Assembly: GCA_963558245.1 (NCBI GenBank)
Contig: CAUWGA010000003.1
Coordinates: 1,709-65,708, forward strand
Source of the DNA: an uncultured Clostridia bacterium
GTDB taxonomy: Bacteria; Bacillota; Clostridia; TANB77; CAG-508
Direction of reading: 5' to 3'
Length of the DNA: 64,000 bases
Shown: piece by piece, positions 2,726-52,587 of the stretch
Layout: the number at the start of each line of letters is the position of its first letter
Numbering within the stretch: position 1 is the stretch's first letter
Program-made: the position numbers and the translations under genes
The notes under the pieces: generated by a model
What the model was told of the DNA's origin: nothing
The model's database searches: none
Seen by the model: the letters and a program-made list of their open reading frames with translations, nothing else

Positions 2726-2829
2726 TGTCCAATTGGGGACGTTTCTCTTATGGACATTTTGGTAAAATTTGTATTTGATATTATAAGTAAATTCAAAATG
2801 TCCATAAGAAAAACGTCCCCAATTGGACA
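2726..2829. repeat. GTCC/GGAC palindromic repeat family, copy A (inverted dimer)
   Basis: Arms 2726-2762 (TGTCCAATTGGGGACGTTTCTCTTATGGACATTTTGG) and 2794-2829 are reverse complements with 1 mismatch around a 31-nt AT loop. The unit recurs at 7348, 20721, 36988 and 52551. Confidence 0.85.
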
Positions 2830-2837
2830 TAAATAAT

Positions 2838-5800
2838 TTACTCAAATAAATTCATTATTTCGTCTTTTGATAATTGACTTATGAATTTAGCTTTTGTGTC
2901 TAACATATTATCTGCTAATTTTGCTTTTCTTTCTTGCAATTCATATATCTTTTCTTCTATTGAATTTTTTGTTATTAATTTATATACTTGTACATTGTTT
3001 TTTTGTCCTATTCTATACGCTCTATCTGTTGCTTGGTTTTCTGTTGATATGTTCCACCATGGATCGTAATGTATAACCATATCTGCTCCTGTTAAGTTTA
3101 GTCCTGTTCCACCTGCTTTTAGTGAAATTAAGAATACCTTCACATCTGGATTTATATTAAATTCATCTACTAATTTTATTCTATCTTCAACTTTAGTTGA
3201 GCCTGTTAGTTTAAAATAATTTATTTTACTTTCTTTTAGTGCTTTTTCGATTATTTCAAACATGGATGTATATCCAGAAAATAATAAGATTTTATGCCCA
3301 CCTGTTATTGCATCTTGTATTATTTCCATGCATTGGTCAAGTTTGCTACTTCCTGAATTATAGTTATTTATAAATAAGCTTGGATGACAACAAATTTGTC
3401 TTAATCTTGTTAATGCTGCAAGTATTTGCATATGTGAATGTTCGTATCCATTTTGTTCTATTTGTTCTAATAATTCCTGCTTTGCTTGTGTCAAATAATT
3501 TAAATAAATTTTTTGTTGTTCTTCATTCATTTCATTATTTAATACAGTTACTGTTTTGTCTGGTAATTCTGTTAGTACCTCTTTTTTATTTCTTCTTAAT
3601 ACAAATGGTTCTATTAACATTTTTAATTTTTGCATTGCTCTTTCGTCTTCTTTTTTTACTATAGGCATTTCATATGTATTTTTAAATTTTCTATATGTAA
3701 ATAAATATCCCGGCATAATAAAGTCAAATATTGACCATAATTCAGATAGTGAATTTTCTATTGGTGTTCCTGTTAGCGCATATCTTGTGTCTGCTTTTAT
3801 TTGTTTTATTGCTTTTGCATTTTTAGTTGTACTATTTTTTAAATATTGCGCTTCATCGGCTATAATATATCTAAATTTATAATTTTTCTCTTTGTATAAC
3901 TCAATATCTCTTTTTAACAAATCATATGATGTTATAACTAAATCATAATTTTCTATATTGTTTATTATTTCTTTTCTTTCTGCTAGTGTACCTCGTATTA
4001 CGCAACTTTTTAAATTTTGAGTAAATTTATTTACTTCGTTTAGCCAATTTAGTGTTAACGAACTTGGAGATACTACTAAACTTGCTCTTCCTCCAACATT
4101 ATGAGCATAATCTACTATCACAGATAACATTTGTACTGTTTTTCCAAGTCCCATATCATCTGCTAAAATCCCACCAAAATGATATCTGTCTAGTGTTTTT
4201 AGCCATTTATATCCTGTTTTTTGATAATATCTTAATGTTCCACTTAAGTTTTTTGGTATTTCCATATTTTCTTCTAGTTGGTCTTTGTTCAATTCATTTA
4301 TAATACTTTTATATTCTGAATTTTTTATTATCTCAGTTCCTTTTAATCCTGTTAATAGTTGATTTAGATACAACGCTCTATTAACTGGTAATTTCATTTC
4401 TCCTTCTGATAGTTCTTCATAGTCTATTCCCATACCAGTTGCAAGTTTATCTAAAAATTCTATTTCTTTATTTTCTTGTAATTCTATAAATGACCCATCT
4501 TTTAGTCTATGATACTTCTTTTTTAATGAATATTTTTCCATTATGTCTTTTAATTCAGATGTATCTATATCTAGCCTACTTAAGTCTATTGATAATAAAT
4601 CATTTTCTACTTTTACTCCTATACCACTCATTTTAGGTGTTCTGATTTGTTTTGCTTTAAAGTTCTCTGTAACCATTACTTCAAAACTTTTCATATAATA
4701 ATTTATATCTTGGGTTAAAAATCTATAGATATCTTCATCATTTGGCAAAATAAATCTTAGATTTTTTACATCTAACATAAAACCTGATTTTCTAAACATA
4801 TTTAATGCTTTTGTTTCTTTTATTTTGTTTCTTGAAAATGTAGTAACTACTTTAAAATCTAGTGGATTAAATTCGTTTTGTTCATAACAAAACTTTACAT
4901 CTACTATTAGATAATCATTTTTATCAAAATCTAAAAACATTTTTACAATAAGTTCTTTTGGTCTATATTTTTCTATTTCTTCCTCTTTTATGTTTTTCAT
5001 TATAATTGAATTTTTCACTTTTGGCATTATCACTGAGAAGAAGTCTGATAATTCATTTTCGCTAAATTCTATTTCTGTTAAATAATTTTGTTTAAACATT
5101 TCTAGTAACTTTAACGTAGTTTTTTCAAATTCTTTTGTGCATCTATATATTTTTTTATCATCTAAAACATATTTATATTTTCTTCCTGTTAAAATAATTT
5201 CTTCGTAAATTTGCACATTTGGAAACAAAGTAAATCTTTCATTATCTTTTTTCTTTAGGATAAAGTTTATTTTAGGCTGTTCATCTGTAAATAATATTTT
5301 TCCATTGTTATAGTCTCTTTTGAAGTTTACTTCTTTACCTTCTAAAGTGTCAAATAAATCATCTATCCCGCTATTTCCAACGATTATATTTGCTTCACTA
5401 AGTGCTTTTCCATAATATCTATAATTACTATTAGAGTTTGAATTAGCATATTTTATGATTTCAGCATATTTCATAACAAAATCTAATATTTTTTGGCTTT
5501 CCGTATCAAAAGCATCTTTAGTATGTACTAATTCTAATTTTTCTCCATATTTAAAATAGTCTTTTTCCATCATTCTTGTATAAAATTCTGCTAAGTTTTT
5601 TATTTTATACATCTTTTTGCTAGTACCTATTTTAAATTCTATTTTCATATCACCTTGAAATTTGTCATAGTAAATAATTGGTTCTAATTTTATATTACCT
5701 TCTATTTTTAAATCTTCTCCATTATTTGAAAGACTTTCCATTTCTTCTTGATAAAATATATTTACAATTTGTTTAAAATTTCTGTATGTTTGTTCTTTTG

Positions 5801-6359: not shown

Positions 6360-7358
6360 TTGAAAGATTTAAAAGTAGCCATCGTAGGGGCAACAGGACT
6401 TGTTGGTAGGTCCTTTTTAAAAGTTTTAGAAGAAAAAAAATTACCAATATCAAATTACACTTTATTTGCTAGTAAACATTCCGCTGGTAATAAAGTTGCA
6501 TTTTTAGGAAAGGATTATGTTGTACAAGAATTAACAGAAACATCATTTGATGAAGGCTTTGATTTCGCATTATTTTCTGCTGGTGGAGATATTTCTAAAA
6601 AATTTGCTCCAATTGCAGTATCAAAAGGTTGTACTGTTATAGATAATAGCAGTTATTTTCGTATGGACGAAAATGTACCATTAGTCGTTCCAGAAGTAAA
6701 TATAGAAGATGCTTATAATAATAATGGAATTATCGCTAATCCAAATTGTTCAACAATTCAAGCTATGTTACCATTAAAAGCATTAAATGATAAGTACAAA
6801 ATAAAAAGAATTGTTTATTCTACTTATCAAGCTGTTTCTGGTGCTGGAAAATCTGCTTTAGAAGATTTGGCAAACACTAATGGTTCTAAGGAATTAAAAA
6901 AATTCCCTCATCCTATATATAACAATTGTTTACCACATATTGATTCTTTTATGGAAAATGGATACACTAAAGAAGAACTTAAAATGATTAATGAAACAAG
7001 AAAAATATTACATGAACCAGATTTAAGAATTACTGCTACAACAGTCAGAGTTCCTGTTAGTAATTCACATTCTGAATCAATTAATATTGAATTTGAAAAA
7101 GATTTCCATTTAGAAAACTTAATTCAAACTTTAAAAGATTTTCCAAATTTAATTGTTGTAGATAATCCAGAAAAAAACGAATATCCTATGGCTATTGATG
7201 CAACAGGACATGACGAAGTTTTTGTTGGTAGAATACGTAGAGATGACAGTGTAGAATCTGGAGTTAATATTTGGGTTGTTGCTGATAATATTAGAAAAGG
7301 CGCAGCAAGTAATGCTGTTCAAATAATGGAAAAATTAATTGAAAAAATGTCCAATTAG
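6360..7358 (+). CDS. asd: Aspartate-semialdehyde dehydrogenase
   Basis: VAIVGATGLVG Rossmann motif and active-site NPNCSTI. TTG start 7 nt after the RBS AGGAGG. The last codons MSN-TAG lie inside repeat copy B. Confidence 0.92.
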   Translation: MKDLKVAIVGATGLVGRSFLKVLEEKKLPISNYTLFASKHSAGNKVAFLGKDYVVQELTETSFDEGFDFALFSAGGDISKKFAPIAVSKGCTVIDNSSYFRMDENVPLVVPEVNIEDAYNNNGIIANPNCSTIQAMLPLKALNDKYKIKRIVYSTYQAVSGAGKSALEDLANTNGSKELKKFPHPIYNNCLPHIDSFMENGYTKEELKMINETRKILHEPDLRITATTVRVPVSNSHSESINIEFEKDFHLENLIQTLKDFPNLIVVDNPEKNEYPMAIDATGHDEVFVGRIRRDDSVESGVNIWVVADNIRKGAASNAVQIMEKLIEKMSN

Positions 7359-7430
7359 GGACAGGTACAAAGAGGACATTCTGGAATAATTTTCCAAAAT
7401 ATCCTCTTTGTACCTGTCCCCAATTGGACA
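7348..7430. repeat. GTCC/GGAC palindromic repeat family, copy B (inverted dimer)
   Basis: Arms 7348-7384 and 7394-7430. It fills the whole asd/dapB convergent gap. Confidence 0.85.
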
Positions 7431-16118: not shown

Positions 16119-16276
16119 GTGATTTTTGGGTTGGAGGAAAAAACATTTATACCTAGTTAATATATACATTATAAATAGCAAAACAAGTAGATATTATATA
16201 GCACACTTTATAAATAATACCTACTTGTTTTTTTATTAAATTTTCAAATAAATTTTTCCTGTGACCTCAAAATCAC
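16119..16276. repeat. Candidate MITE-like module: imperfect terminal inverted repeats around an 18-bp hairpin
   Basis: GTGATTTTTGGGTTGGAGGAAAAA (16119-) and its imperfect complement ending at 16276 match at 19/24 by hand. The inner hairpin pairs 16180-16197 with 16214-31. The right half is homologous to 24785-24873. Confidence 0.6.
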
Positions 16277-19370: not shown

Positions 19371-20705
19371 TTATCCATCAAAACGTTTTTCTATATTAAC
19401 AAATTTTGTATAACTTCCAAGCCACAATAGTTCTACTGTACCTGTTGAACCTCCTCTGTGTTTTGCCATAATAACTTCTGCTATACCTTTTTTTTCACTA
19501 TCTTCATTATAATAGTCATCTCTATATAAAAACATAACTATATCCGCATCTTGTTCTATTGCTCCTGATTCTCTTAAGTCTGATAACATTGGTCTATGGT
19601 CTGGTCTTTGTTCAGCAGCTCTTGACAATTGTGACAATGCTATTACTGGTACATCTAATTCTTTAGCAAGTATTTTTAAAGAACGGCTTATTTCTGAAAT
19701 TTCTTGTTCACGACTACCACTTCTTTTATTGCTTCCTTGTATTAATTGCAAATAGTCTATTACAACCATACCTATATTTTTTTCTATTTTTAGTTTTCTA
19801 CATTTTGCTCTTATCTCAGTTATATTTATACCTGGTGTATCGTCAATATATACTTCTGCTTCTGATAAAGGTCCTATTGCTCCTGCAAGTTTAGTCCAAT
19901 CATCTTCTTCTAATTTACCAGTTCTAACTTTGTTACTGTCTACCATTGCTTCACTACATAAAATTCTGTTTACTAACTGTTCTTTTGACATTTCCAAACT
20001 AAATACTGCAACAGGGACATTTGCTCTTACTGCTGCATTTGTTGCTATATTTAGTGCAAATGCTGTTTTTCCCATAGCAGGTCTTGCAGCTATAAGTATC
20101 AATTCTGAACCATGAAATCCTGCTGTTCTATAGTCAAGTTCTATAAAACCAGATGGAACACCTGTTATATGTTGTTTTCTGTTATATAGTTCTTCTAATT
20201 TAGTAAATGATTCGACTAAAACATCTTTTATAGGTTCATATCCTTTTTGGTTTTTTTCTTGCATAACATTAAATATTTTCTTTTCTGCACCTTCCATAAT
20301 GTCTTCTACATCTTCTGTTGGATTATAACCTAATTCAATAATTTCATTAGCTGTTTTTATTAACTGTCTTAATGTTGATTTTTCTTCTACTATTTTAATA
20401 TATTTCATAGCATTTGCTGTTGTAGGAACTTTTTCAGGTAATTCAGCTAAATACTCTAATCCACCAATTTGGTCAAATTTCCCCATACTTTCTAGCTCTG
20501 ACTTTACAGTAATAATATCAATTGGCTCAGATTTATTATATAAATTTAAAATAGCTCTATATATAGATTTATTATCTTCTCTATAAAAATCATCTTCTTT
20601 TAGCACCTCAACAGCTGAAATAACAGCATCTCTATCTGTAAGCATACTTCCTATTATAGCTTGTTCTGCTTCTACATCATTTGGTGGTACCTTTCCTAAT
20701 TCCAT
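19371..20705 (-). CDS. dnaB: Replicative DNA helicase DnaB
   Basis: PPNDVEAEQAIIGS N-terminus and Walker A ARPAMGKTAFAL. Start is most likely ATG 20705 (GGAG 6 nt upstream), with ATG 20717 as an alternative. The longer track ORF reads through repeat copy C. Confidence 0.9.
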   Translation of the reverse strand: MELGKVPPNDVEAEQAIIGSMLTDRDAVISAVEVLKEDDFYREDNKSIYRAILNLYNKSEPIDIITVKSELESMGKFDQIGGLEYLAELPEKVPTTANAMKYIKIVEEKSTLRQLIKTANEIIELGYNPTEDVEDIMEGAEKKIFNVMQEKNQKGYEPIKDVLVESFTKLEELYNRKQHITGVPSGFIELDYRTAGFHGSELILIAARPAMGKTAFALNIATNAAVRANVPVAVFSLEMSKEQLVNRILCSEAMVDSNKVRTGKLEEDDWTKLAGAIGPLSEAEVYIDDTPGINITEIRAKCRKLKIEKNIGMVVIDYLQLIQGSNKRSGSREQEISEISRSLKILAKELDVPVIALSQLSRAAEQRPDHRPMLSDLRESGAIEQDADIVMFLYRDDYYNEDSEKKGIAEVIMAKHRGGSTGTVELLWLGSYTKFVNIEKRFDG

Positions 20706-20720
20706 TTTTTTCTCCATTCT

Positions 20721-20804
20721 TGTCCTATTGGGGACGTTTCTGAAGTGGACATTTTTGCAATTTTTTTCCAAAATGTCCACTTCAGAAACGTCCCTAATAG
20801 GACA
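20721..20804. repeat. GTCC/GGAC palindromic repeat family, copy C (inverted dimer)
   Basis: Arms 20721-20755 and 20768-20804. It lies between the rplI stop and the dnaB RBS. Confidence 0.85.
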
Positions 20805-24490: not shown

Positions 24491-24672
24491 AGTAATCTCC
24501 TTCTATTTACTCTATTATATTTTACTCGTAAAAGCACCTTTTGTCAAGAAACCACAAGTATTTAACTGATTTTAAAAATTGAAAATAATATTGTTATTTT
24601 TACTATTTAAACATTTTTTATATTTAAAACATTCATAAATTAAATGAATTTTCCATTTTTAATAAATCTATT

Positions 24673-24817
24673 AAAAAAACAAGTAGGTATTATTTATAAA
24701 ATACTGCGTAAGCGACCAAACGAGCTTTAGCGAGTGCGATTGGAGCAACCAACAACAATTTAATTATGTGGTTGCGACACACAAAGTATTTTATAAATAA
24801 TACCTACTTGTTTTTTT
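24673..24817. repeat. Perfect 33-bp inverted repeat with a 79-nt GC-enriched spacer, downstream of rpoC
   Basis: 24673-24705 (AAAAAAACAAGTAGGTATTATTTATAAAATACT) is the exact reverse complement of 24785-24817. By hand count the spacer is about 46% G+C in a genome that is otherwise about three-quarters A+T. Confidence 0.85.
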
Positions 24818-24873
24818 ACTTATGTTTTTATTTACTAAGTTAAAATATTTTTTCCTCTTACTACAAAATCAGG

Positions 24874-27800
24874 TTATTCAGCTTCAATTGTAGTTGGATT
24901 TACAGCTTCTTCTATATCTGCTGTTTCTTCTAATTCTTTTTCTGTATTTATATGAATGTTTTGGTATTTTTGCATACCTGTTCCTGCTGGGATTAATTTA
25001 CCAATAATAACATTTTCTTTTAATCCAATTAAGTCGTCAACTTTACCTTTAACAGCTGCTTCTGTTAATACTCTAGTTGTTTCTTGGAATGATGCAGCAG
25101 ATAAGAAGCTATCTGTAGCAAGTGATGCTTTTGTAATTCCAAGTAGTACTCTTTTTCCTGTTGCTGGTCTTTTGCCATTTTCTATTGCTTGTTTATTTTT
25201 TGCTTCGAATTCATACATATCGATTAATGCTCCTGGGAACATATCCGTATCTGCATTGTCTTCTACTCTGATTTTCTTAAGCATTTGTCTTGCAATTACT
25301 TCAACGTGTTTATCATTGATATCAACACCTTGATTTCTATATACTTTTTGTACCTCAGAAATCAAGTATTCAAATACTCCTTCTGGTCCTTTGATTTCTA
25401 GTAATTCTCCTGGATTTACAGAACCTTCAATAAGTGGTTGTGCTACTTCTACCATGTCTCCATCTTTTACTTTCATTTTTGAACCAAATGGTATTGTATA
25501 AGTTCTTGAATCATCTCCAGATGTTACAATAACTTCTTTTTTCTTCTTAGTTTCTTTTATTTTTACTTTACCAGCTATTTCTGTGATTATTGCTAATCCC
25601 TTTGGTTTTCTAGCTTCAAATAATTCCTCAACTCTAGGAAGACCTTGTGTAATATCTGCTACACCTGCAACACCACCTGAGTGGATAGTTCTCATTGTAA
25701 GCTGTGTACCAGGCTCACCAATTGATTGTGCAGCAACTATACCTACTGATTCTCCTATTGATACTAAATCTCTTCTTGCTAATCCCATACCATAACATTT
25801 TTGACATACACCACGTTTTGAGTGGCATCCTAGTACTGAACGTACTTCTAATTTGTCAATTCCAGCTGCAACGATATCATCAGCAATTTTTTCATTAATC
25901 ATTGTATCTGTATCAACAATTAATTCTTTTGTTTCTGGATGATATACATTATTTACAGCAAATCTTCCAACTAATCTTTCTTGCATCTTTTCAATTATTT
26001 GATTTCCGTCTTTTATGTCATATACAACATAACCTTCATCTGTTCCACAGTCATGTTCTCTAACAATTATATCTTGTGATACATCAACTAATCTTCTTGT
26101 TAAATATCCAGAGTCAGCTGTTCTTAACGCTGTATCTGAAAGTCCTTTACGAGCTCCATGGGCTGAAATAAAGTATTCCAATGCATCTAGACCCTCTGCA
26201 AATGATGATCTAATAGGAATTTCAACAGCTTTACCTGTTGTACTAGCCATAAGTCCACGAATACCTGCAATTTGACGTAATTGGTTCATATTACCACGGG
26301 CTCCAGATTTAACCATCATGTATATTGGGTTTAATTCATCGAAGTTATCTTCCATAGCTTTACTAACTTCGCCTGTTGTTTTTTCCCATGTACTAATAAC
26401 TGCATTATATCTTTCTTCGTTAGTTATTAAACCACGTACATATTGTTTTCTGATATTTTCTATTTGCTCATCAGCTTTTGCTAAGATGTCTTTTTTAGCT
26501 GGTGGTACTTTAACATCGTCCATTGAGAATGTGATACCTGCAAGTGTTGAATATTTAAATCCTAAGGCTTTGATATAGTCTATAACTTTTGCAGATTCAG
26601 TTAGTCCATGTGTTCTTATTACTTTTTCAATAATTGTTCCCATTGATTTTTTCATAACTGGGAAACTTATTTCGTATTGGAATGGATCTTCTTTTCTGTC
26701 TATAAATCCTAAATCTTGAGGTATTCCTTGGTTAAATATAATTCTACCAACACTTGTTTCTATTTTTTTAGATTTTAGTTCTCCATCAATTTCTTTTGTT
26801 ATTCTTACAAATATTTTAGCATGAATTCCTACTTCATGGTTTTCAAAAGCCATTATTGCTTCTTCAGGATCTTTAAAGTATTTATTTTCTCCTTTTTCTC
26901 CTTCTAATACCATTGTTAAGTAGTATGAACCTAAAATCATGTCAAGTCTAGGTGTTGCAACTGGTTTACCATCTTGTGGTTTTAATAAGTTATTTGTAGA
27001 TAACATTAAATATCTTGATTCTGCTTGTGCTTCTGGTGATAATGGTAAGTGAACTGCCATTTGGTCACCGTCGAAGTCAGCGTTGAATGCTTCACAAACT
27101 AATGGGTGAAGTTTTATTGCTCTACCTTCTACTAGAACTGGCTCAAAACTTTGAATACCAAGTCTATGTAATGTCGGAGCACGGTTTAACATTACTGGAT
27201 GGTCTTTTATAACATCTTCTAATATTTCCCATACTTCTGGTCTTAATTTTTCTACCATTCTTTTTGCATTTTTAATATTTTGAGCAATTCCTCTACCTAC
27301 TAATTCTTTCATAACAAATGGCTTGAATAATTCTACTGCCATTTCTTTTGGTAAACCACATTGATATATTTTAAGTTCAGGTCCTACAACGATAACTGAA
27401 CGTCCTGAATAGTCAACACGTTTTCCAAGTAAGTTTTGACGGAAACGTCCTTGTTTTCCTTTTAACATATCTGATAATGATTTTAATGGTCTGTTTCCAG
27501 CTCCTGTTACTGGTCTACCACGTCTACCATTATCAATTAAAGCATCTACTGATTCTTGTAACATTCTTTTTTCGTTTCTTACTATTATTTCAGGTGCCCC
27601 TAATTCTAATAGTCTTTTTAAACGATTATTTCTGTTTATAACTCTTCTATATAAGTCATTTAAGTCTGATGTTGCAAATCTACCACCATCTAATTGTACC
27701 ATTGGTCTTAATTCTGGTGGAATAACTGGTACAACATTCATAACCATCCATTCAGGTTTATTACCTGAAAGTCTAAATGCTTCTACAGTATCTAGTCTTT

Positions 27801-28425
27801 TTACTAATTTTACTTTTCTTTGTTCACTAGCTGTTTCTAGTTCTTTTTTAATTTCTTCTGATAGTTTTTCAATATCAATTTCTTCTAATAATTCTCTTAT
27901 TGCTTCAGCACCCATTTTTGCTTTAAATGAACCTCTACCATATTTTTCTTGTGCTTCATGATATTCTTTTTCATTTAAAACTTGGCATTTGTCTAATCCT
28001 GTTGTTCCTTTATCAGTTACAACATATGATGCAAAATATATAACTTTTTCTAGATTTCTTGGTGAAATGTCTAGCATTAAAGCAATTCTACTTGGAATTC
28101 CTTTAAAATACCAAATATGAGCAACTGGTGCAGCAAGTTCTATATGTCCCATTCTTTCACGTCTAACTTTTGCCTTTGTTACTTCAACACCACATCTATC
28201 ACAAACAATTCCTTTATAACGAATTCTTTTATATTTTCCACAGTGACATTCCCAGTCTTTTGTTGGTCCAAATATTCTTTCACAGAATAAACCATCTTTT
28301 TCTGGTTTTAATGTTCTATAGTTTATAGTTTCAGGTTTTTTAACTTCACCTTTTGACCATTCTCTTATTTTTTCGTCTGATGCAACTCCAATTTTTATTT
28401 TATCAAAAACATCTAATTCGTCCAC
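24874..28425 (-). CDS. rpoC: DNA-directed RNA polymerase subunit beta'
   Basis: NADFDGDQM catalytic motif and zinc-binding [23 protein letters not shown] start after GAAGGGAG. Confidence 0.97.
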
Positions 28426-32735: not shown

Positions 32736-34067
32736 TTACTTTGTATAAAAGTTTATAAATCTTTGTATACTTTGATATTCATTTACTGGATTGTTATTAG
32801 TAGAATCATATACTATTTTAGTATATGATGAATCCATAACATTTCCATTTGGTGCTATTACAAATCCTCCTGTATTATATGATGATTCCACCCATTTTCT
32901 CCAATTCATACCTGAGTCTAATCCATATTGTACACCATCTATATATATCGTAAACATTGGCATTTGCCAATTTGCCACTAACTCTAAGTTTCTATAAATT
33001 GATATTGTTTCAGATGGCAAATAAGTTTTAGCATCTCCATACCAATATGAAAAATTCCAGCCAGCTTTCGAAGGTGTTTGACTGCTTATAGTAATTGTTG
33101 CTGCAATTTCTTCTCCAGCATAGTTCATGTATACTGTTCCTGTTTGATTATCTGGTTCTACTGTTCCTCCATCTGCATTATAAGACACTGTTACTGTTTT
33201 ACTATAAGAAGCATAATATGTTTTATCTGTTGAAACATTTACTGTTTCATTAGGTAATACTTCAATTCTAGCATTTCCAGATTTTTCAGTTGACCATCCT
33301 CTTGTATAATATGTTTCTCCAGATACATTTATATTTCCTATTGTTAAAACTGTAATATCTGTACTAGTATTTTTATTATAAATCATTACCGGCTTATTAA
33401 TTGTTTCTGTATTTCGTCCATTATAATAATTAAATGTTATTGTTATGGTTTTACTATAGATAGCATATAAGGTTATATCACTTGTTCCCATATTTAAATT
33501 TTCTATTTTACTTGTCGCATTTTTATCTGTATTCCATCCAACAAACTCATATCCTTGTTTTGTTGCAGTTGGTGATAAATCTATTTTTGAACCGCTTTGT
33601 ATAGTATCTGTTGTTTTAGTTGATGAGCTTCCTCCATTTTCTGCATAATTATATGTTACTGTATATTTTCTTCCATCCTGTGTTTTTTCTAAGTAGTCGT
33701 CTAATTTTCCTTCTATTACATATCTCGGATTCTTTGTTGTTATAGAACCTGTTTCTTTATTAACATCATCTCTTGTAGCTATTATATCTTCTTTTAATAA
33801 TCCATCAATTATGTCTTCTAATGTTGGATTTCTATGTGTTCCTTCTACTTGAATTATTACTTGATCTATCCTCTCTTCCATATTTGCTTTTTCTATTTCT
33901 TCTTTTGCATTTTGTGCTTGCTTTATTATTCCATTATCTGATGTTATTGCTGCTATTGATACACCTGCAAGTATTAGCAGTACTATTATTGTTATTGCCA
34001 ATGCTATTACTGTAATACCTTTTGAATTTGTTTTTAAATTCTTATACACTTCTTTTTCTCTTTTCAT
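32736..34067 (-). CDS. Modular pilin-like protein P1: non-canonical class III-like signal/anchor plus Listeria-Bacteroides repeat cargo
   Basis: N-terminus is ...NSKG ITVIALAITIIVLLILAGVSIAAITSDNGIIKQAQNAK. The C-terminus has repeats with GYEFVGWNTD, YTRGWSTE, AGWNFSYWYGD and LVANW signatures. The GTG at 34049 aligns with the P2 start and may be the true start. Confidence 0.7.
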   Translation of the reverse strand: MKREKEVYKNLKTNSKGITVIALAITIIVLLILAGVSIAAITSDNGIIKQAQNAKEEIEKANMEERIDQVIIQVEGTHRNPTLEDIIDGLLKEDIIATRDDVNKETGSITTKNPRYVIEGKLDDYLEKTQDGRKYTVTYNYAENGGSSSTKTTDTIQSGSKIDLSPTATKQGYEFVGWNTDKNATSKIENLNMGTSDITLYAIYSKTITITFNYYNGRNTETINKPVMIYNKNTSTDITVLTIGNINVSGETYYTRGWSTEKSGNARIEVLPNETVNVSTDKTYYASYSKTVTVSYNADGGTVEPDNQTGTVYMNYAGEEIAATITISSQTPSKAGWNFSYWYGDAKTYLPSETISIYRNLELVANWQMPMFTIYIDGVQYGLDSGMNWRKWVESSYNTGGFVIAPNGNVMDSSYTKIVYDSTNNNPVNEYQSIQRFINFYTK

Positions 34068-34258: not shown

Positions 34259-35587
34259 CTATAAATATAAAATTGGTCTGAAGCAATGATAATCCCATTT
34301 GTCATCTAAAAATCCTGTATATCTTTGCTGAGTATTTGTTATATAATACCACCTTCCTCCACGTCCTGTACAAGGAGTAGAATCATCTCCAAACGTTTCT
34401 GTTGACCATTCCTCAGTATTACTTGCCATATCATATATATTACATATCTTATCTGATTTGCTTAGATGATTAGTTCCTTTCGGTTCTGTGGCATTATTAT
34501 TTATACTAACTTGAATAGAATATGGTTTTTCTTTATTTTCTCTATTATCACATGCTTGCAAAAATACTATTGCAGTATCCCATGCATAACTATTTACTAA
34601 ATCACTTTCAAAATTACTATTGTTATACATATTTCTACTTAAATCTGCTGCTTGTGGTTGTGTTACATAATTATACACGTAATTTTCTGCTGTACTTACA
34701 ACTTGATTTGTGTCACTTGTTGTTTCTGTTCTTGCTATTGTTGTATTTTTGTCTCTTGCTTCATATCTTCCTATGTAATATCCTTTACTTGTTGTCGCTT
34801 TTGTTTTAAAATCATCTATATTTTTTGCTGTAGTATTTCCTTTATATGATATTGATAATTCCTCAAAACTGTATTTATCTGCATCATCTCTTCTAATAGG
34901 ATTATTGCCATGATTTGTTTCTTTTCCTGTTACTTCATCAAATGTATATCTACTCAAATTTATCGTTACTTTTGTTTTATTTTTCTTTGTTACTTCTCCT
35001 ACTGGTATCCACACAAATTGGCTTCCTACTGTTGGTCTTGTTGTATCTACATCTTCTATTATTATTCCGTCTGGCACTGTTTCATCTGGATTTATTATCT
35101 TAAATCCTGCTGGGACTTTTACTTCATTTCCTAACTTGTCCTTTACAAGTGTATTGGTTGTTTCAGTTCCTGTTACTGTTCCTAATGTTCCTTGATCTGT
35201 TGGTTTACCGTTTTCTCCTGAATTTTCTAAATATTCATCTAATTTTCCATCTATTATATAACTTGGATTTTTTGTTGTTATAGAACCTGTTTCTTTGTTA
35301 ACATCTTGTGCTGAGCCTATTACTTCTCCTTTTATCAATCCTTCTATTACATCATTTAATGTTGGATTTCTATGTGCTCCTTCTACTTCAATTATTACTT
35401 GATCTATTCTTTCTTCCATATTTGCTTTTTCTGTCTCATCTTTAGCATTTTGTGCTTGTTTTATTATTCCATCATCTGATGTTATTGCTGCTATTGACAC
35501 CCCTGCAAGTATTAGCAATACTATTATCGTTATCACTAATGCTATTAATGTAATACCTTTTGAATTTGTTTTAAAGTTCTTATTCAC
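34259..35587 (-). CDS. Modular pilin-like protein P2: non-canonical class III-like signal/anchor plus FGE-sulfatase (SUMF1)-like domain
   Basis: N-terminus is MNKNFKTNSKG ITLIALVITIIVLLILAGVSIAAITSDDGIIKQAQNAK. C-terminal motifs are YYIGRYEA, NIYDMASNTEEW, RGGRW and a terminal CFRP. GTG start after AAAGGAGAAG. Confidence 0.7.
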   Translation of the reverse strand: MNKNFKTNSKGITLIALVITIIVLLILAGVSIAAITSDDGIIKQAQNAKDETEKANMEERIDQVIIEVEGAHRNPTLNDVIEGLIKGEVIGSAQDVNKETGSITTKNPSYIIDGKLDEYLENSGENGKPTDQGTLGTVTGTETTNTLVKDKLGNEVKVPAGFKIINPDETVPDGIIIEDVDTTRPTVGSQFVWIPVGEVTKKNKTKVTINLSRYTFDEVTGKETNHGNNPIRRDDADKYSFEELSISYKGNTTAKNIDDFKTKATTSKGYYIGRYEARDKNTTIARTETTSDTNQVVSTAENYVYNYVTQPQAADLSRNMYNNSNFESDLVNSYAWDTAIVFLQACDNRENKEKPYSIQVSINNNATEPKGTNHLSKSDKICNIYDMASNTEEWSTETFGDDSTPCTGRGGRWYYITNTQQRYTGFLDDKWDYHCFRPILYL

Positions 35588-36987: not shown

Positions 36988-37019
36988 ATGTCCACTTTGG
37001 ACCTGTCCCTAAATAGACA
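36988..37019. repeat. GTCC/GGAC repeat family, solo unit D
   Basis: ATGTCCACTTTGGACCTGTCCCTAAATAGACA is the reverse complement of TGTCTATTTAGGGACAGGTCCAAAGTGGACAT. It overlaps the last three codons and the stop of xth. Confidence 0.75.
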
Positions 37020-41376: not shown

Positions 41377-44300
41377 TTAATAATTTTCTGTATATGATGT
41401 TTGCTTTCCGTCAGGACTTATTGTAGCCACCCATCCTTTAGAAACATTCCCTGCTACGTCTGATATCTCTACATACATTTTTATTGTTCTTTGTGTAAAA
41501 CTATTATCATTCATCGGAATTACACATCTATAAGAATAACTTTGTGACCCTGTAATATAACCTTCTGTATTTCCATACATCGGAGCAAATTCAATCATTG
41601 TTTGTTTATTATACGAATATTCTAAATCTGTTTTATAGTAACAATCAATTTTAGCAATTCCAGATTCATTTTCTTTAATTGCATTTAATTGAAGATATGC
41701 CTCTCTTTTAACTTGATCTCTAGATATCGCCATCATTCCTTTTTGCATTTTAGTTGGAGGTGTTTTATCTATATTAGTTATATTATAACTTGCATGTCCT
41801 CCTGATGTGTATCCATCTGTTAACCTTGCATAAATTGTTCCATTTTGTTTTACTGCTATTCTATTAGTTGTCACCCAACTATACTCATCTAAAGGATTTC
41901 CTGTTGTTAACTGTAAAGTCCATTTCGTTTCAGATGTTCTAACACTTACATTTACATCTTGATTTGTCCATCTAGTTACATCTGGTGTAAACCATACATT
42001 TGTATTTGTTATTAGTGATGGTATTTGAGCTTGCCATCTTGCATATATAGTTGTATTTCCTGTTGGTGTGTATGTTCCTCCTGCATCTCCTACTTTACTT
42101 CCTCCTGTTGATGATGTATACCATCCTAAAAATGTATATCCTTCTTTTGTTGGTCTTGGTAATGTTATACCTATATGACTATAATTTGCTGTCAATGTTC
42201 CATTTTGACTTCCAAATGTATATGTATTCCCATATATTCTTCCTCCTCCTGATATTGACCAACCATTAAAAGAATAATATGAACTACTTGATGTTTGATT
42301 TACATTTCCTCCATTTGCATTAAATGTAACTCTATATCCTGATGGTGATGTTGGAGTTGGTATTGTTACCTGTTCTCCTTCTTTTCCCGTTTTTATCGTT
42401 CCTCCTGATATGCTTCCTTGTCCTGGGTTTATTGTTAGTGTATATCTTGGAAGTGAATTTGTTGTTACTGTTTTATATGCACTTTTGTTTCCTGCTTCAT
42501 CCTTTACCCATACATAATATGTTGTACCTTCATTTAATCCTGATACAGTTATATTTAAATTATTTGTTTTTCCAACAGTTATGAAACTACCTGGAAAACT
42601 ATTAGTTGAAATTGCATATCCATTTATTCCTGTACCACTATCTGTTGCTTCTATTGTTATTGACGTTGTTCCTGGTATTAATCTAGTAATGTTTGGTGCT
42701 GTCCTATCTTCCCATCTTGCATATATAATTGTATTTCCTGTTGGTGTGTATGTTCCTCCTGCATCTCCTACTTTACTTCCTCCTGTTGATGATGTATACC
42801 ATCCTAAAAATGTATATCCTTCTTTTGTTGGTCTTGGTAATGTTATACCTATATGACTATAATTTGCTGTCAATGTTCCATTTTGACTTCCAAATGTATA
42901 TGTATTCCCATATATTCTTCCTCCTCCTGATATTGACCAACCATTAAAAGAATAATATGAACTACTTGATGTTTGATTTACATTTCCTCCATTTGCATTA
43001 AATGTAACTCTATATCCTGATGGTGATGTTGGAGTTGGTATTATTACCTGATCTCCTTCTTTCCCTATTTTTGTCGTTCCTCCTGTTATACTTCCTTGTC
43101 CTGGATTTATTGTTAATGTATATCTCGGAACAGCATTTGTTGTTACTGTTTTATATTCACTTTGATTTCCTGCTTCATCTTTTACCCATACATAATATGT
43201 TGTACCTTCATTTAACCCCGATACTGCTATATTTAAATTATTTGTTTTTCCAACAGTTATAAAGCTACCTGGAACACTATTAGTTGAAATTGCATATCTA
43301 TTTATTCCTGTACCACTATCTGTTGCTTCTATTGTTATTGACGTTGTCCCTGGTATTAATCTAGTAATGTTTGGTGGCGTCCTATCTTCCCATCTTGCAT
43401 ATATTGTTATATTTCCTGATGGTGTGTATATATTTCCTGCATCTCCTACTTTGCTTCCTCCTGTTGATGATGTATACCACCCTAAAAATGTATAGCCTTC
43501 TCTTGTTGGGGTTGGTAAAGTTACTCCTACATGGCTATAACTTGCCGTTATTGTTCCGTTTTGATTTCCAAATGTATATGTATTCCCGGATATTGTTCCT
43601 CCTCCAGACAAAGTCCATTTGTTAAAAGTATAATTTGAATTAATTGACGTTTGACTTACTTTTCCTCCATTTCCATTTAATGTTACCGTGTATCCTGATG
43701 GTGATGTTGGAGCTGGTATTGTTATTTGCTCTCCATTTTTTCCTGTTTTTGTTGTTTCTCCTGTAATACTTCCTTGCCCTGGATTTATTGTTAATGTGTA
43801 TCTTGGAACAGCACTTGTTGTTACTGTTTTATGTTCACTCTGATTTCCCGCTTCATCTTTTACCCACACATAATATGTTGTATTTTCTTTTAATTCTGAT
43901 ACTGTTATATTTAAATTATTTGTTTTTCCTACTGAGACAAAGCTACCTGGAACGGCACTTGTTGAAATTGCATATTTATTTATTCCTGTTCCACTATCTG
44001 TTGCTTCTATTGTTATTGATGTTGTTCCTGCAGTTAGTCTTGTAATCTTTGGTGCTATTTTATCTTCCCATCTTGCATATATTGTTACATTTCCTGTTGG
44101 CACATATTTACTCCCTGCATCTCCTACTTTGCTTCCTCCTGTTACTGATGTATACCACCCTAAAAATGTATAGCCTTCTCTTGTTGGAGTTGGTAAAATT
44201 ACTCCTATATGATTATAACTTGCTGTTAATGTTCCATCTTGAGTTCCAAATGTATATGTATTTCCAGATATTGTTCCTCCTCCAGATAACGTCCATTTAT

Positions 44301-45147
44301 CAAAAGTGTAGTTTGAATTGATTGCTACTTGGCTTACGCTCCCACCATTTCCATTTAGCGTTATCTTATATCCTAATGGTGCTGTAGGAGTTGATATTGT
44401 TATTTGTTCACCATTTTTTCCGGTTTTTGTAGTTTCTCCTACTATACTTCCTTGTCCTGGATTTATTGTTAATGTGTATTTTGGATCCTCAACTATTTTT
44501 TTATTGTATATTATTATTACTTTTTTTATATTTTTATCTAACGCAATAGTATCTGTTAATTTAACATCTTGTTTACTGCCATCTAATTTTTCTATTTCTG
44601 CTCTTTCAAATTCATAATTGTTTTTTTTCTTTATTTCTTCACTTAATTCAAGTTTACCTACGTTTATATTTTCATTTGTATATTCTTGCAATTTTCTACT
44701 TATTACGGTTCCATCTGATGTTTTATATTCTATTACTAATTTTAATTCTATAGAATCAGTCACATCACCTTCTGCTGTCACATAGTATTTTCTTTTTGTT
44801 TCTAAATATTCTATTCCAAATATATATGGACCTTGATCTTGTATAATGCTTACATCTATTTTTTGACTATTATAGTTATTTCTTAATTTTTGCTCGAGTT
44901 TGTCTCTATCTGTTATTTCTACTTTTCCGTTCCTTTTTTCTCCTATTAGTGCTACTATTGACATGTCTATATTTTCTTTTTCAGCTTGTATTTCTACTTG
45001 CTCTTTTGATTTATTTGCTTCTTTTATAATTCCATTATCACCTGTTAACATCATTATAGAAATACCTGCTAATATTAGTAAAACAATTATGGTTATTGCT
45101 AATGCAATTATTGTAACACCTTTATTATTTCTTAATTTTGATTTCAT
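41377..45147 (-). CDS. Giant modular pilin-like protein P3: non-canonical class III-like signal/anchor plus 3.6 tandem [Listeria-Bacteroides repeat x2 + Fn3/Ig-like] units plus C-terminal beta domains
   Basis: N-terminus is MKSKLRNNKG VTIIALAITIIVLLILAGISIMMLTGDNGIIKEANKSK. Repeated blocks are GYTFLGWYTS..GGSKVG...IYARWED and ATDSGTGIN.YAIST...TTYYVWVKDEAGN. Confidence 0.75.
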   Translation of the reverse strand: MKSKLRNNKGVTIIALAITIIVLLILAGISIMMLTGDNGIIKEANKSKEQVEIQAEKENIDMSIVALIGEKRNGKVEITDRDKLEQKLRNNYNSQKIDVSIIQDQGPYIFGIEYLETKRKYYVTAEGDVTDSIELKLVIEYKTSDGTVISRKLQEYTNENINVGKLELSEEIKKKNNYEFERAEIEKLDGSKQDVKLTDTIALDKNIKKVIIIYNKKIVEDPKYTLTINPGQGSIVGETTKTGKNGEQITISTPTAPLGYKITLNGNGGSVSQVAINSNYTFDKWTLSGGGTISGNTYTFGTQDGTLTASYNHIGVILPTPTREGYTFLGWYTSVTGGSKVGDAGSKYVPTGNVTIYARWEDKIAPKITRLTAGTTSITIEATDSGTGINKYAISTSAVPGSFVSVGKTNNLNITVSELKENTTYYVWVKDEAGNQSEHKTVTTSAVPRYTLTINPGQGSITGETTKTGKNGEQITIPAPTSPSGYTVTLNGNGGKVSQTSINSNYTFNKWTLSGGGTISGNTYTFGNQNGTITASYSHVGVTLPTPTREGYTFLGWYTSSTGGSKVGDAGNIYTPSGNITIYARWEDRTPPNITRLIPGTTSITIEATDSGTGINRYAISTNSVPGSFITVGKTNNLNIAVSGLNEGTTYYVWVKDEAGNQSEYKTVTTNAVPRYTLTINPGQGSITGGTTKIGKEGDQVIIPTPTSPSGYRVTFNANGGNVNQTSSSSYYSFNGWSISGGGRIYGNTYTFGSQNGTLTANYSHIGITLPRPTKEGYTFLGWYTSSTGGSKVGDAGGTYTPTGNTIIYARWEDRTAPNITRLIPGTTSITIEATDSGTGINGYAISTNSFPGSFITVGKTNNLNITVSGLNEGTTYYVWVKDEAGNKSAYKTVTTNSLPRYTLTINPGQGSISGGTIKTGKEGEQVTIPTPTSPSGYRVTFNANGGNVNQTSSSSYYSFNGWSISGGGRIYGNTYTFGSQNGTLTANYSHIGITLPRPTKEGYTFLGWYTSSTGGSKVGDAGGTYTPTGNTTIYARWQAQIPSLITNTNVWFTPDVTRWTNQDVNVSVRTSETKWTLQLTTGNPLDEYSWVTTNRIAVKQNGTIYARLTDGYTSGGHASYNITNIDKTPPTKMQKGMMAISRDQVKREAYLQLNAIKENESGIAKIDCYYKTDLEYSYNKQTMIEFAPMYGNTEGYITGSQSYSYRCVIPMNDNSFTQRTIKMYVEISDVAGNVSKGWVATISPDGKQTSYTENY
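42031..44484. repeat. In-frame 678-bp (226-codon) tandem repeat array, 3.6 units, inside P3
   Basis: Unit boundaries are 44484, 43806, 43128 and 42450. 42051-42362 and 42729-43040 look identical by eye, and the track shows identical spurious plus-strand peptides at 42051 and 42729. Confidence 0.9.
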
Positions 45148-52079: not shown

Positions 52080-52498
52080 CCTTACCACCTCTTATTTTTT
52101 GATAAGCTTATTTTAATACTTGTCCTTTGTGGTTTTTGTCTTTTCTAGTCTTTTTGCTAGAAAAACTTTTTTACAATTTATGATATTTATTTGTGTTTTA
52201 TTTCCTTTTATCACAATATTTCGTTTTTATTTTATTACATAATGTTGAAAAAAGCAAGATTAAGAAGTTAAAAAATATATAAACTGCGACACACAAAGTA
52301 TGAAACAATAATTTATTATTCAACTGTGAATTGTAACCTTTTGTATAAGCTAGAACAAATAGGAAAGCCATTAAATTAGCATAATTTTAATCTTTCTCTT
52401 AGGCTTTCCGTTAATTTGTTCGTGTGCCAATTTTACGTTAGTAAAATTGTGTACAATAGGGTTTTATATATTAGAAAGTCAGCATGACTTTCTAATAT

Positions 52499-52537
52499 AT
52501 AAAAAAAGATAGAAAACTTTTAATTGTCTTCTATCTT
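52499..52537 (-). terminator. Rho-independent terminator after the 1405-aa surface protein gene
   Basis: AAGATAGAA / TTCTATCTT stem followed by seven T on the minus strand. Confidence 0.65.
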
Positions 52538-52550
52538 TTTACTATTTTTT

Positions 52551-52587
52551 CCAAAATGTCCACTTTGGACCTGACCCTAATTGGACA
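52551..52587. repeat. GTCC/GGAC repeat family, solo unit E
   Basis: CCAAAATGTCCACTTTGGACCTGACCCTAATTGGACA abuts the TAA of the surface protein gene with a 0-nt gap. Confidence 0.8.

Follow-up and report, generated by a model that had tools for sequence, protein, structure and literature searches.

The window, the whole 64-kb stretch of DNA that was analyzed, contains eight copies of a 35–45-nt repeat unit at five loci, arranged as three inverted dimers and two solo units with a density of ∼1 unit per 8 kb. The identities of the flanking genes were checked by Pfam or by translation. Copy A (2726–2829) lies between an SNF2 helicase gene, whose stop codon (2838) is 8 nt away, and the ribosome-binding site (RBS) and ATG (2708) of a GIDA/TrmFO-like gene. 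Its arms, at 2726–2762 on the plus strand and 2793–2829 on the minus strand, enclose an AT-rich loop of 31–32 nt; they show two mismatches over 37 nt and are 97% complementary over 36 nt with 32 nt between them. Copy B (7348–7430; arms 7348–7386 and 7392–7430, 5-nt loop) lies between asd and dapB, which converge on it. The unit's own TAG (7356–7358) provides the asd stop codon, and the dapB stop (7431) touches the other end of the dimer at a distance of 0 nt. Copy C (20721–20804; arms 20721–20760 and 20765–20804, 4-nt loop) is 2 nt from the rplI stop codon (20807) and faces the dnaB gene with its RBS GGAG at 20712–20715 and ATG at 20705. Arms A1 and C1 end 5–8 nt ahead of the GGAG of the next gene.

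The two solo units are on the minus strand. Copy D (36989–37019) is degenerate, with a weak match to the profile HMM of the unit (E 0.06), and its internal TAG (37011–37009) is the stop codon of an xth-like gene. The 5′ end of the unit in asd and xth lies at −11 nt from the stop, the TAG being part of the ATTAG of the unit, and the annotated C-termini of the two proteins are altered because both end in the repeat's own TAG. Copy E (52547–52587), detected by both pattern and HMM, starts 0 nt from the stop codon of a 1405-aa SpaA-domain surface protein (52588), despite ∼500 nt of intergenic sequence beyond it. A canonical intrinsic-terminator-like hairpin with a T-run (52503–52540, minus strand) is located directly downstream of copy E and outside the repeat, so that the unit lies within the 3′ UTR, upstream of the actual terminator. 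Dimers A and C would have to be read through, as there is no promoter space before trmFO and dnaB; within the unit, the search for a promoter gave weak consensus matches only. The arms of copy A and the stop-codon distances of all five loci reproduce those given in the initial annotation, as does the ending of copies A and C just short of the next RBS.

The unit in the window has the layout TGTCCNATTRGGGAC-N11-GGACATTTT. The pattern TGTCC-N5-GGGAC-N11-GGACA has nine matches in the 64-kb window compared with 0.02 expected from shuffles, and none of the nine (2726/2799, 7348/7400, 20721/20774, 36989–37019 on the minus strand, and 52557–52587) falls outside the five loci that had been reported as one family. 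The match at 52557–52587 scores on both strands because the second subtype is itself a quasi-palindrome. A profile HMM trained on 195 distinct related units recovers exactly the same eight units and no others, and a half-unit search of the window yielded no additional copies. The G+C content of the unit is ∼48%, compared with ∼27% for the window. Two subtypes are distinguished by the N11 segment, which is GTTTCT-N5 in copies A and C (first subtype) and AGGTMCAAAGW in copies B, D, and E (second subtype; AGGTACAAAGA in copy B and TGTCTATTTAGGGACAGGTCCAAAGTGGACA in copy D), the latter forming a weak quasi-palindrome by itself. The main subtype has only a 4–5-bp GTCC/GGAC hairpin at its 5′ end and is not a palindrome on its own. 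The unit begins with TGTCC, and a GTAG or CGTC head tag is absent.

The RNA fold of the three dimers is predicted at −57 to −60 kcal/mol with z-scores of about −15 (copy A, −59.7 kcal/mol, z −15.3; copy B, −58.3 kcal/mol, z −14.8; copy C, −57.4 kcal/mol, z −14.7). Weak structures are predicted for both solo units, in the range of −11 to −13 kcal/mol and with z-scores near −2 (copy D, −12.7 kcal/mol, z −2.5; copy E, −11.1 kcal/mol, z −2.0). Rfam returned no match for the whole window at gathering thresholds and nothing relevant for two sub-regions at E-value thresholds, and the unit sequence was not found in the searchable literature, in agreement with the earlier view that the repeat does not belong to a named family. 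The window contains neither tRNA nor tmRNA genes with which the units could be associated.

The initial annotation had looked to related genomes for further copies, a bias toward stop codons, and the gene of a REP-associated tyrosine transposase (RAYT), and all three were found. A scan of species-representative genomes detected at least 115 stretches with the unit from at least ∼30 species represented by metagenome-assembled genomes (MAGs); the family-wide counts given here cover the matches listed. Among these, the MAGs that carry the unit are classified as uncultured Clostridia, Clostridium, Eubacteriales, or Bacillota and originate from chicken, rabbit, mouse, goat, and human gut. The consensus in relatives, TGTCCAATTGGGGACGTTTCTGTTTGGGACATTTTTATGTAAAG, is strongly conserved; over ∼217 units among the matches listed it reads TGTCCAATTGGGGACGTTTCTGTTTGGGACATTTT, and many copies extend to ...TTATGTAAAG. 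The earlier consensus had treated N11 as a free segment between two conserved blocks. The unit pattern holds, but the N11 segment is not free because in most of the related genomes it is strongly conserved as GTTTCTGTTTG. Approximately 95% of the units among the matches listed are outside open reading frames (ORFs). Phage carriage was rejected, as a single one of 2.9 million viral contigs has a match to the pattern.

The rplI protein of the window has matches in metagenome assemblies only. Copies A and C are present in all same-species assemblies seen: copy A occurs in other strains with an identical intergenic length (129 nt), and copy C in six other assemblies of the species. The rplI–dnaB spacer, which holds a full dimer in the window, carries a 31-nt mini-palindrome built of two 5′ modules and a remnant in L008, the nearest of the relatives identified, and no element in three other relatives (L084, L116, and L056). 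The arms of each window dimer have 34–35 of 37 bases in common, compared with 24–31 between loci; the corresponding family means are 34.2 within a dimer and 31.0 between loci. Most units are near-identical in several other MAGs, whereas the three dimers of the window are mutually diverged. As these dimers differ and yet their own arms stay matched, the sequences suggest that the window genome holds an old, perhaps inactive, population of units rather than the product of a recent burst.

The units display a fixed polarity. Adjacent units up to 520 nt apart, among the matches listed, comprise 48 (+,−) pairs, no (−,+) pairs, and 15 tandem pairs. In a (+,−) pair both TGTCC ends are on the outside and face a stop codon or RBS. 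The outer-to-outer length of inverted pairs is continuous from ∼60 to ∼510 nt, with few pairs at kilobase distances. The spacers between the arms range from 3 to ∼470 nt, and most have no sequence similarity to one another; several contain apparent terminator hairpins when inspected by eye. Given these variable and unrelated spacers, unlike the uniform spacers of Pseudomonas REPINs, some pairs may consist of two independent single units. Direct repeats of 5, 6, 8, and 9 bp were absent from the ends of all 47 pairs analyzed, and a 7-bp repeat was found in one of the 47; repeats of 2–4 bp occurred in these pairs at ∼2 times the control frequency. The lack of a target-site duplication of 5 bp or more fits Y1 rather than DDE chemistry.

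Two further arrangements were observed among the pairs. At least four MAGs contain a composite subfamily of ∼295 nt, in which a ∼230-nt conserved core with its own long hairpin lies between two units in either orientation (L018, 3785–4078; L041, 119–409; L049, 6215–6511; L067, 1238–1539; L068, 2266–2560 and 7240–7534), and which seems to spread as one piece. A short motif, GGGGACGGACTCA / TGAGTCCGTCCCC, adjoins units in L119 (3755–3961), L053 (∼480–535), and L117 (∼4640–4680). It prolongs the palindrome past the TGTCC ends in L119, and may represent a second repeat family or an alternative end.

Placement relative to stop codons is sharply non-uniform. Among the matches listed, 118 units have their 5′ end facing the 3′ end of a gene; 30 of them are at 0 nt from the stop, which is the modal distance, 26 are at 1–3 nt, and the internal TAG serves as the stop codon of the gene in another 10. 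When the free spacer measures at least 60 nt, 38 of 59 units are within 3 nt of the stop, where uniform placement would predict ∼5.8 (Poisson P about 1e-18). Solo units in transcribed orientation are within 10 nt of a stop in 40 of 42 cases, and those in the opposite orientation have their TGTCC end abutting the RBS of the next gene. The 8–10-nt class mostly shows the stop followed by a partial duplicate of the first 8 nt of the unit.

The stop codons found at 0 nt (TAA:TGA:TAG, 25:3:2) resemble the background usage (559:70:183). The bias is thus tied to the stop codon itself rather than to the TAA triplet, and TAA was rejected as an insertion target on this ground. TAA precedes some units away from any stop, which leaves room for a weak TAA preference. 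Provision of a stop in all three frames by the element was also rejected: the peaks are confined to 0 nt (30 units) and the internal TAG (10 units), and no peak was seen for ORFs ending at a TAA ∼40 nt inside the element. A coding reading, in which TAA|TGTCC generates TAATG and opens the frame MSNWGRFCLGHF, fails on two grounds; the variable positions (5, 9, 16, and 20–25) miss the wobble positions, and the frame beyond the unit varies with spacer length. The 0-nt peak could reflect targeting, selection against gene or RBS disruption, or shrinkage of the spacer down to constrained sequence.

The enzyme associated with the units was identified between inverted pairs. All three inverted pairs with a separation of ∼1 kb (L074, L091, and L110) enclose an ORF of 256–271 aa, of which L079 contains a homolog, while the pairs at 2–4 kb that were opened (L029 and L101) enclose ordinary genes. 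The ORF matches the Pfam family Y1_Tnp with an E-value of 1.5e-17. The best NCBIfam model is the REP-associated tyrosine transposase (REP_Tyr_transpos, NF047646) with 61–69 bits, which is below the curated equivalog cut-off of 80 bits; the IS200 model scores 20–23 bits. The HUH motif NHVH, the tyrosine motif YIHQNP, and a subsequent KWSSY are invariant in 33 homologs. An AF2 model (pLDDT 88) has its best PDB fold match in 4er8_A, the E. coli RAYT-REP complex (E 7.7e-7, TM 0.69), which ranks above the transposases of IS608, ISDra2, and IS200; a PDB search by sequence returned no matches. The protein has ∼130 additional C-terminal residues that are modeled as helices with a pLDDT of 77–94. Pfam detects HTH_26 in this extension at a sub-threshold E-value of 7e-4, and no Bac_DnaA_C, HTH_23, or HTH_28.

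Genome fragments of several species share the gene order X (a small ORF)-RAYT-radA-disA, and a recurring locus of this kind is the expectation for RAYTs, which are vertically inherited (bioRxiv 10.1101/2021.07.10.451892). The RAYT gene is flanked by inverted units in L074, L091, L110, L136, and L137. Flanking ends of 35–50 nt that are nearly identical on both sides were observed. In the lineage that has the unit subtypes of the window (L131, L136, and L137), the arrangement is unit, RAYT, unit, radA. There, a second-subtype unit directly follows the TAA of gene X and precedes RAYT, and a first-subtype unit downstream of RAYT overlaps the radA start. The ends that flank RAYT in L110 share the genome-specific variant GTTTACTTGTG with a dispersed dimer. 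RAYT is the sole gene seen directly between two ends, ordinary genes being outside the TGTCC ends. In two further RAYT lineages (P0113 and P0125), the HMM detects no unit next to the gene; the one flank that was read, in L141, has a degenerate remnant only. Many RAYT genes are on contigs of ∼1 kb, which is read as the result of assembly breaks at the flanking repeats.

The window itself has no Y1 transposase by tblastn or by profile search of all six-frame ORFs, as the initial annotation had stated. A pattern scan of metagenomes yielded 10 short contigs, none of which overlaps the window beyond the unit or a short conserved stretch, and the three RAYT lineages found came from samples other than that of the window. 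The genome of the window may have lost its RAYT, since none is present in the window and none is tied to its organism.

Additional observations concern the RAYT homologs and their neighbor. Several homologs (P0122–P0124, P0128, P0137, P0151–P0154, and P0217) consist of 160–200 aa without the C-terminal helical domain, some of them on many contigs; truncation or decay of the gene may account for them, or they may be a short form that occurs naturally. The radA gene beside RAYT is split into two ORFs (∼139 aa and 240–280 aa) in several species and many independent assemblies (L074, 6384–6803; L110, 1782–2204; L141, 3790–5200; L151–L156), and is intact in L132 (455 aa, 1066–2433). The break resembles a one-base frameshift near residue 139 in L110 and is less clear in L141; it could be a real split, a pseudogene, or a recoding site.

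The units thus form a real family with fixed polarity and no target-site duplication, and they flank a RAYT gene in related species. The loci of the window are probably REPIN- or TIR-like non-autonomous repeats of a RAYT/TIRYT system. The 35–45-nt unit would represent the terminal inverted repeat (TIR) of a 'REPtron/TIRtron', namely a single chromosomal Y1 HUH gene of the RAYT/TIRYT type, with a product of ∼260 aa and a helical C-terminal extension, bracketed by outward-pointing TGTCC units. Inverted dimers would retain this geometry minus the gene, and hence be REPIN-like, and solo units would be single ends. RAYT would mobilize the units in trans through hairpins of single-stranded DNA, as proposed for REP/REPIN. 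Copies would survive where they fit exactly into the gap from a stop codon to the following RBS or terminator, and there they are presumably transcribed as 3′ UTR or intercistronic RNA. The 35–40-bp RNA stems of the dimers probably block 3′ exonucleases and provide RNase III substrates, and stems at 0–10 nt from a stop probably impede the terminating ribosome. Ribosome stalling by REPs located within 15 nt of a stop codon was reportedly found by Liang, Rudd and Deutscher in 2015.

The sharp 0-nt peak lacks an explanation in the RAYT/TIRYT model. A rival reading is cistron punctuation selected by the host, in which the stem closes the spacer to bring the stop beside the RBS for translational coupling, or provides an RNase III site, and RAYT is domesticated. 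The TGTCC ends flush with stops or RBSs speak in its favor, both among the solo units in transcribed orientation (40 of 42 at ≤10 nt) and among the units with at least 60 nt of free space (38 of 59 at ≤3 nt, against ∼5.8 expected), and the preserved complementarity of the arms in old dimers and the fixed locus of RAYT point the same way. However, the orthologous spacers of close relatives have no element or another form of it, so that no single copy is conserved like a functional site; many genes have no unit at all, and the flush position could also arise by insertion into tiny spacers followed by purifying selection. Host-selected punctuation is considered unlikely. It is similarly doubtful that the placement goes beyond tolerated insertion and that the Y1 enzyme, or selection on its products, sets the TGTCC terminus exactly at cistron boundaries genome-wide in at least ∼30 species; 35–45-bp stems would then enclose whole intercistronic spacers and broadly serve mRNA processing or translational coupling, maintained by a domesticated RAYT. 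In a weaker version, the units may belong to a single-strand transposition system that targets stop codons.

Intrinsic terminators that have no more than a sequence in common, and that act in both directions in the dimers, would also be found downstream of stop codons as very stable hairpins. Copy B between convergent genes would suit such a role, and solo E is a weak hairpin followed by TTTTGG. Yet no T-run follows the dimer stems, copies A and C end 5–8 nt before the RBS of trmFO and the essential dnaB and would require read-through, and the terminator scan at copy E calls the separate canonical hairpin rather than the unit. Terminators would neither flank a transposase gene in inverted orientation nor hold a 45-nt sequence across at least ∼30 species, making this explanation very unlikely. 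Classical MITEs derived from a DDE-type insertion sequence, to which the inverted termini beginning with TG, the variable internal part, and the conserved core of the ∼295-nt subfamily would be suited, are highly improbable given the absent target-site duplication, the mostly unrelated internal sequences, and a Y1 HUH enzyme as the sole gene ever found between the ends.

RAYT/TIRYT systems provide the closest known parallel to the repeats, and the kind of element is already described in work from 2010 to 2018 as RAYT/REPIN or, more exactly, TIRYT/TIRtron; even contiguity with stop codons is known. The sequence family, its hosts, its abundance, and its strict polarity appear to be unreported. 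Di Nocera et al. (2013, PMC3733652) described RAYT-like genes flanked by long TIRs as TIRYTs, and the resulting elements as TIRtrons. TIRtron TIRs often carry the motif GGGGWSAS and form moderately abundant families that occur as solos, dimers, and clusters (PMC3733652). Most TIRYTs are in Y1 subclass 2.1 with a C-terminal HTH or DnaA_C-like domain, and REP-like sequences were not found adjoining the genes of this subclass (Quentin et al., 2018, PMC6006769). Group 1 RAYTs are present in Clostridia with low-frequency 16-mers only (Bertels et al., 2017, PMC5581495).

The elements described here resemble TIRtrons in that a RAYT-like Y1 HUH gene lies between long inverted repeats rather than short GTAG hairpins, solo, dimeric, and clustered TIR copies are scattered elsewhere, and the long protein has a serine motif beyond the catalytic tyrosine and extra C-terminal residues, which are modeled as helices here and form an HTH domain in subclass 2.1. 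A GGGG-rich motif, GGGGACAG or GGGGACGT, is present and fits GGGGWSAS to varying degrees: unit B2 (GGGGACAG) agrees with it throughout, the remaining second-subtype units (AGGGACAG) at 7 of 8 positions, and the family consensus of the main type, GGGGACGT, at 6 of 8. The present hosts differ from those in the TIRtron literature in being uncultured low-GC gut Clostridia. No TIR-repeat or REP families of Clostridia or Firmicutes are given in the text of PMC3733652 or PMC6006769; the former is silent on these groups, and Quentin et al. (PMC6006769) mention Clostridia once, for the IS200-like subclass 1.1. Compared with TIRtrons, the family in gut Clostridia looks abundant and its ends are unusually precise against stops and RBSs.

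The initial annotation had compared the repeats with REP/BIME, Correia, and RUP/BOX elements, and the first of these likenesses is retained together with RAYT. REP/BIME and REPIN-RAYT systems of Enterobacteria and Pseudomonas likewise consist of extragenic repeats with inverted doublets that form long hairpins, and their single-copy, vertically inherited RAYT flanked by repeats corresponds to the flanked RAYT at a recurring locus. REPs are also found downstream of genes, and their termini often provide the TAG stop of flanking ORFs (PMC3733652), while the enzyme fold matches 4er8. The present elements differ in that the GTAG/CGTC tag is absent, the main unit is not a palindrome, and the spacer varies widely in both size and content; the enzyme is ∼100 aa longer and its NCBIfam RAYT score is below the cut-off. 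IS200/IS605 elements such as IS608 and ISDra2 share the Y1 HUH chemistry, the lack of target-site duplication, and a presumed hairpin substrate of single-stranded DNA, but their ends are two different subterminal hairpins that are not mutual inverted repeats, the elements are multi-copy and autonomous, and the IS200 profile scores far lower here than the RAYT profile (20–23 versus 61–69 bits). The likeness to Correia/NEMIS, RUP, and BOX MITEs is limited to small gene-adjoining repeats with inverted ends that are transcribed into hairpins, and does not extend to their DDE transposases and target duplications; the enzyme here is of the Y1 type and no duplication was seen.

RAYT/REPIN systems have been studied almost entirely in Proteobacteria, and few repeat families are known for the TIR-flanked variant (TIRYT, subclass 2.1). 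An abundant conserved family and its cognate enzyme are now documented across many species of uncultured gut Clostridia. The strict polarity, with 48 of 48 inverted pairs outward, and the quantified placement provide a data set on the target choice of Y1 enzymes and on the effect of stop-adjacent long hairpins on translation and mRNA decay. On the practical side, the repeats probably break metagenome assemblies, as suggested by the many RAYT genes on ∼1-kb contigs.

Several other features of the window were observed. A 164-nt non-coding stretch (52352–52514) is 94–96% identical to the MAG species L075 (HGM13654) and to the metagenome contig L123. It adjoins a repeat unit in the window and in L075, with a unit match ∼20 nt away in L123; it has its own hairpin (52466–52500) and is without a match in Rfam, and may encode a small RNA. 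Another palindrome family, unrelated to the first, is present downstream of the presumed rpoC (1183-aa ORF, 24874–28425), where 24672–24705 and 24785–24818 pair perfectly over 34 bp around a loop of 79 nt, with a T-run. A related copy (16170–16243) is downstream of ftsH, and the two palindromes look like strong terminators that share a sequence. Between convergent genes, the non-coding segment 15064–15315 has no Rfam match at E 0.1 or below and is 88% identical to two MAG species (L116 and L119). Coding repeats consist of four tandem 678-nt repeats (41377–45147) with 80–99% identity within a 1256-aa ORF, and of a 300-nt repeat with 87% identity that is common to the adjacent paralogous genes at 32736–34067 and 34259–35587.
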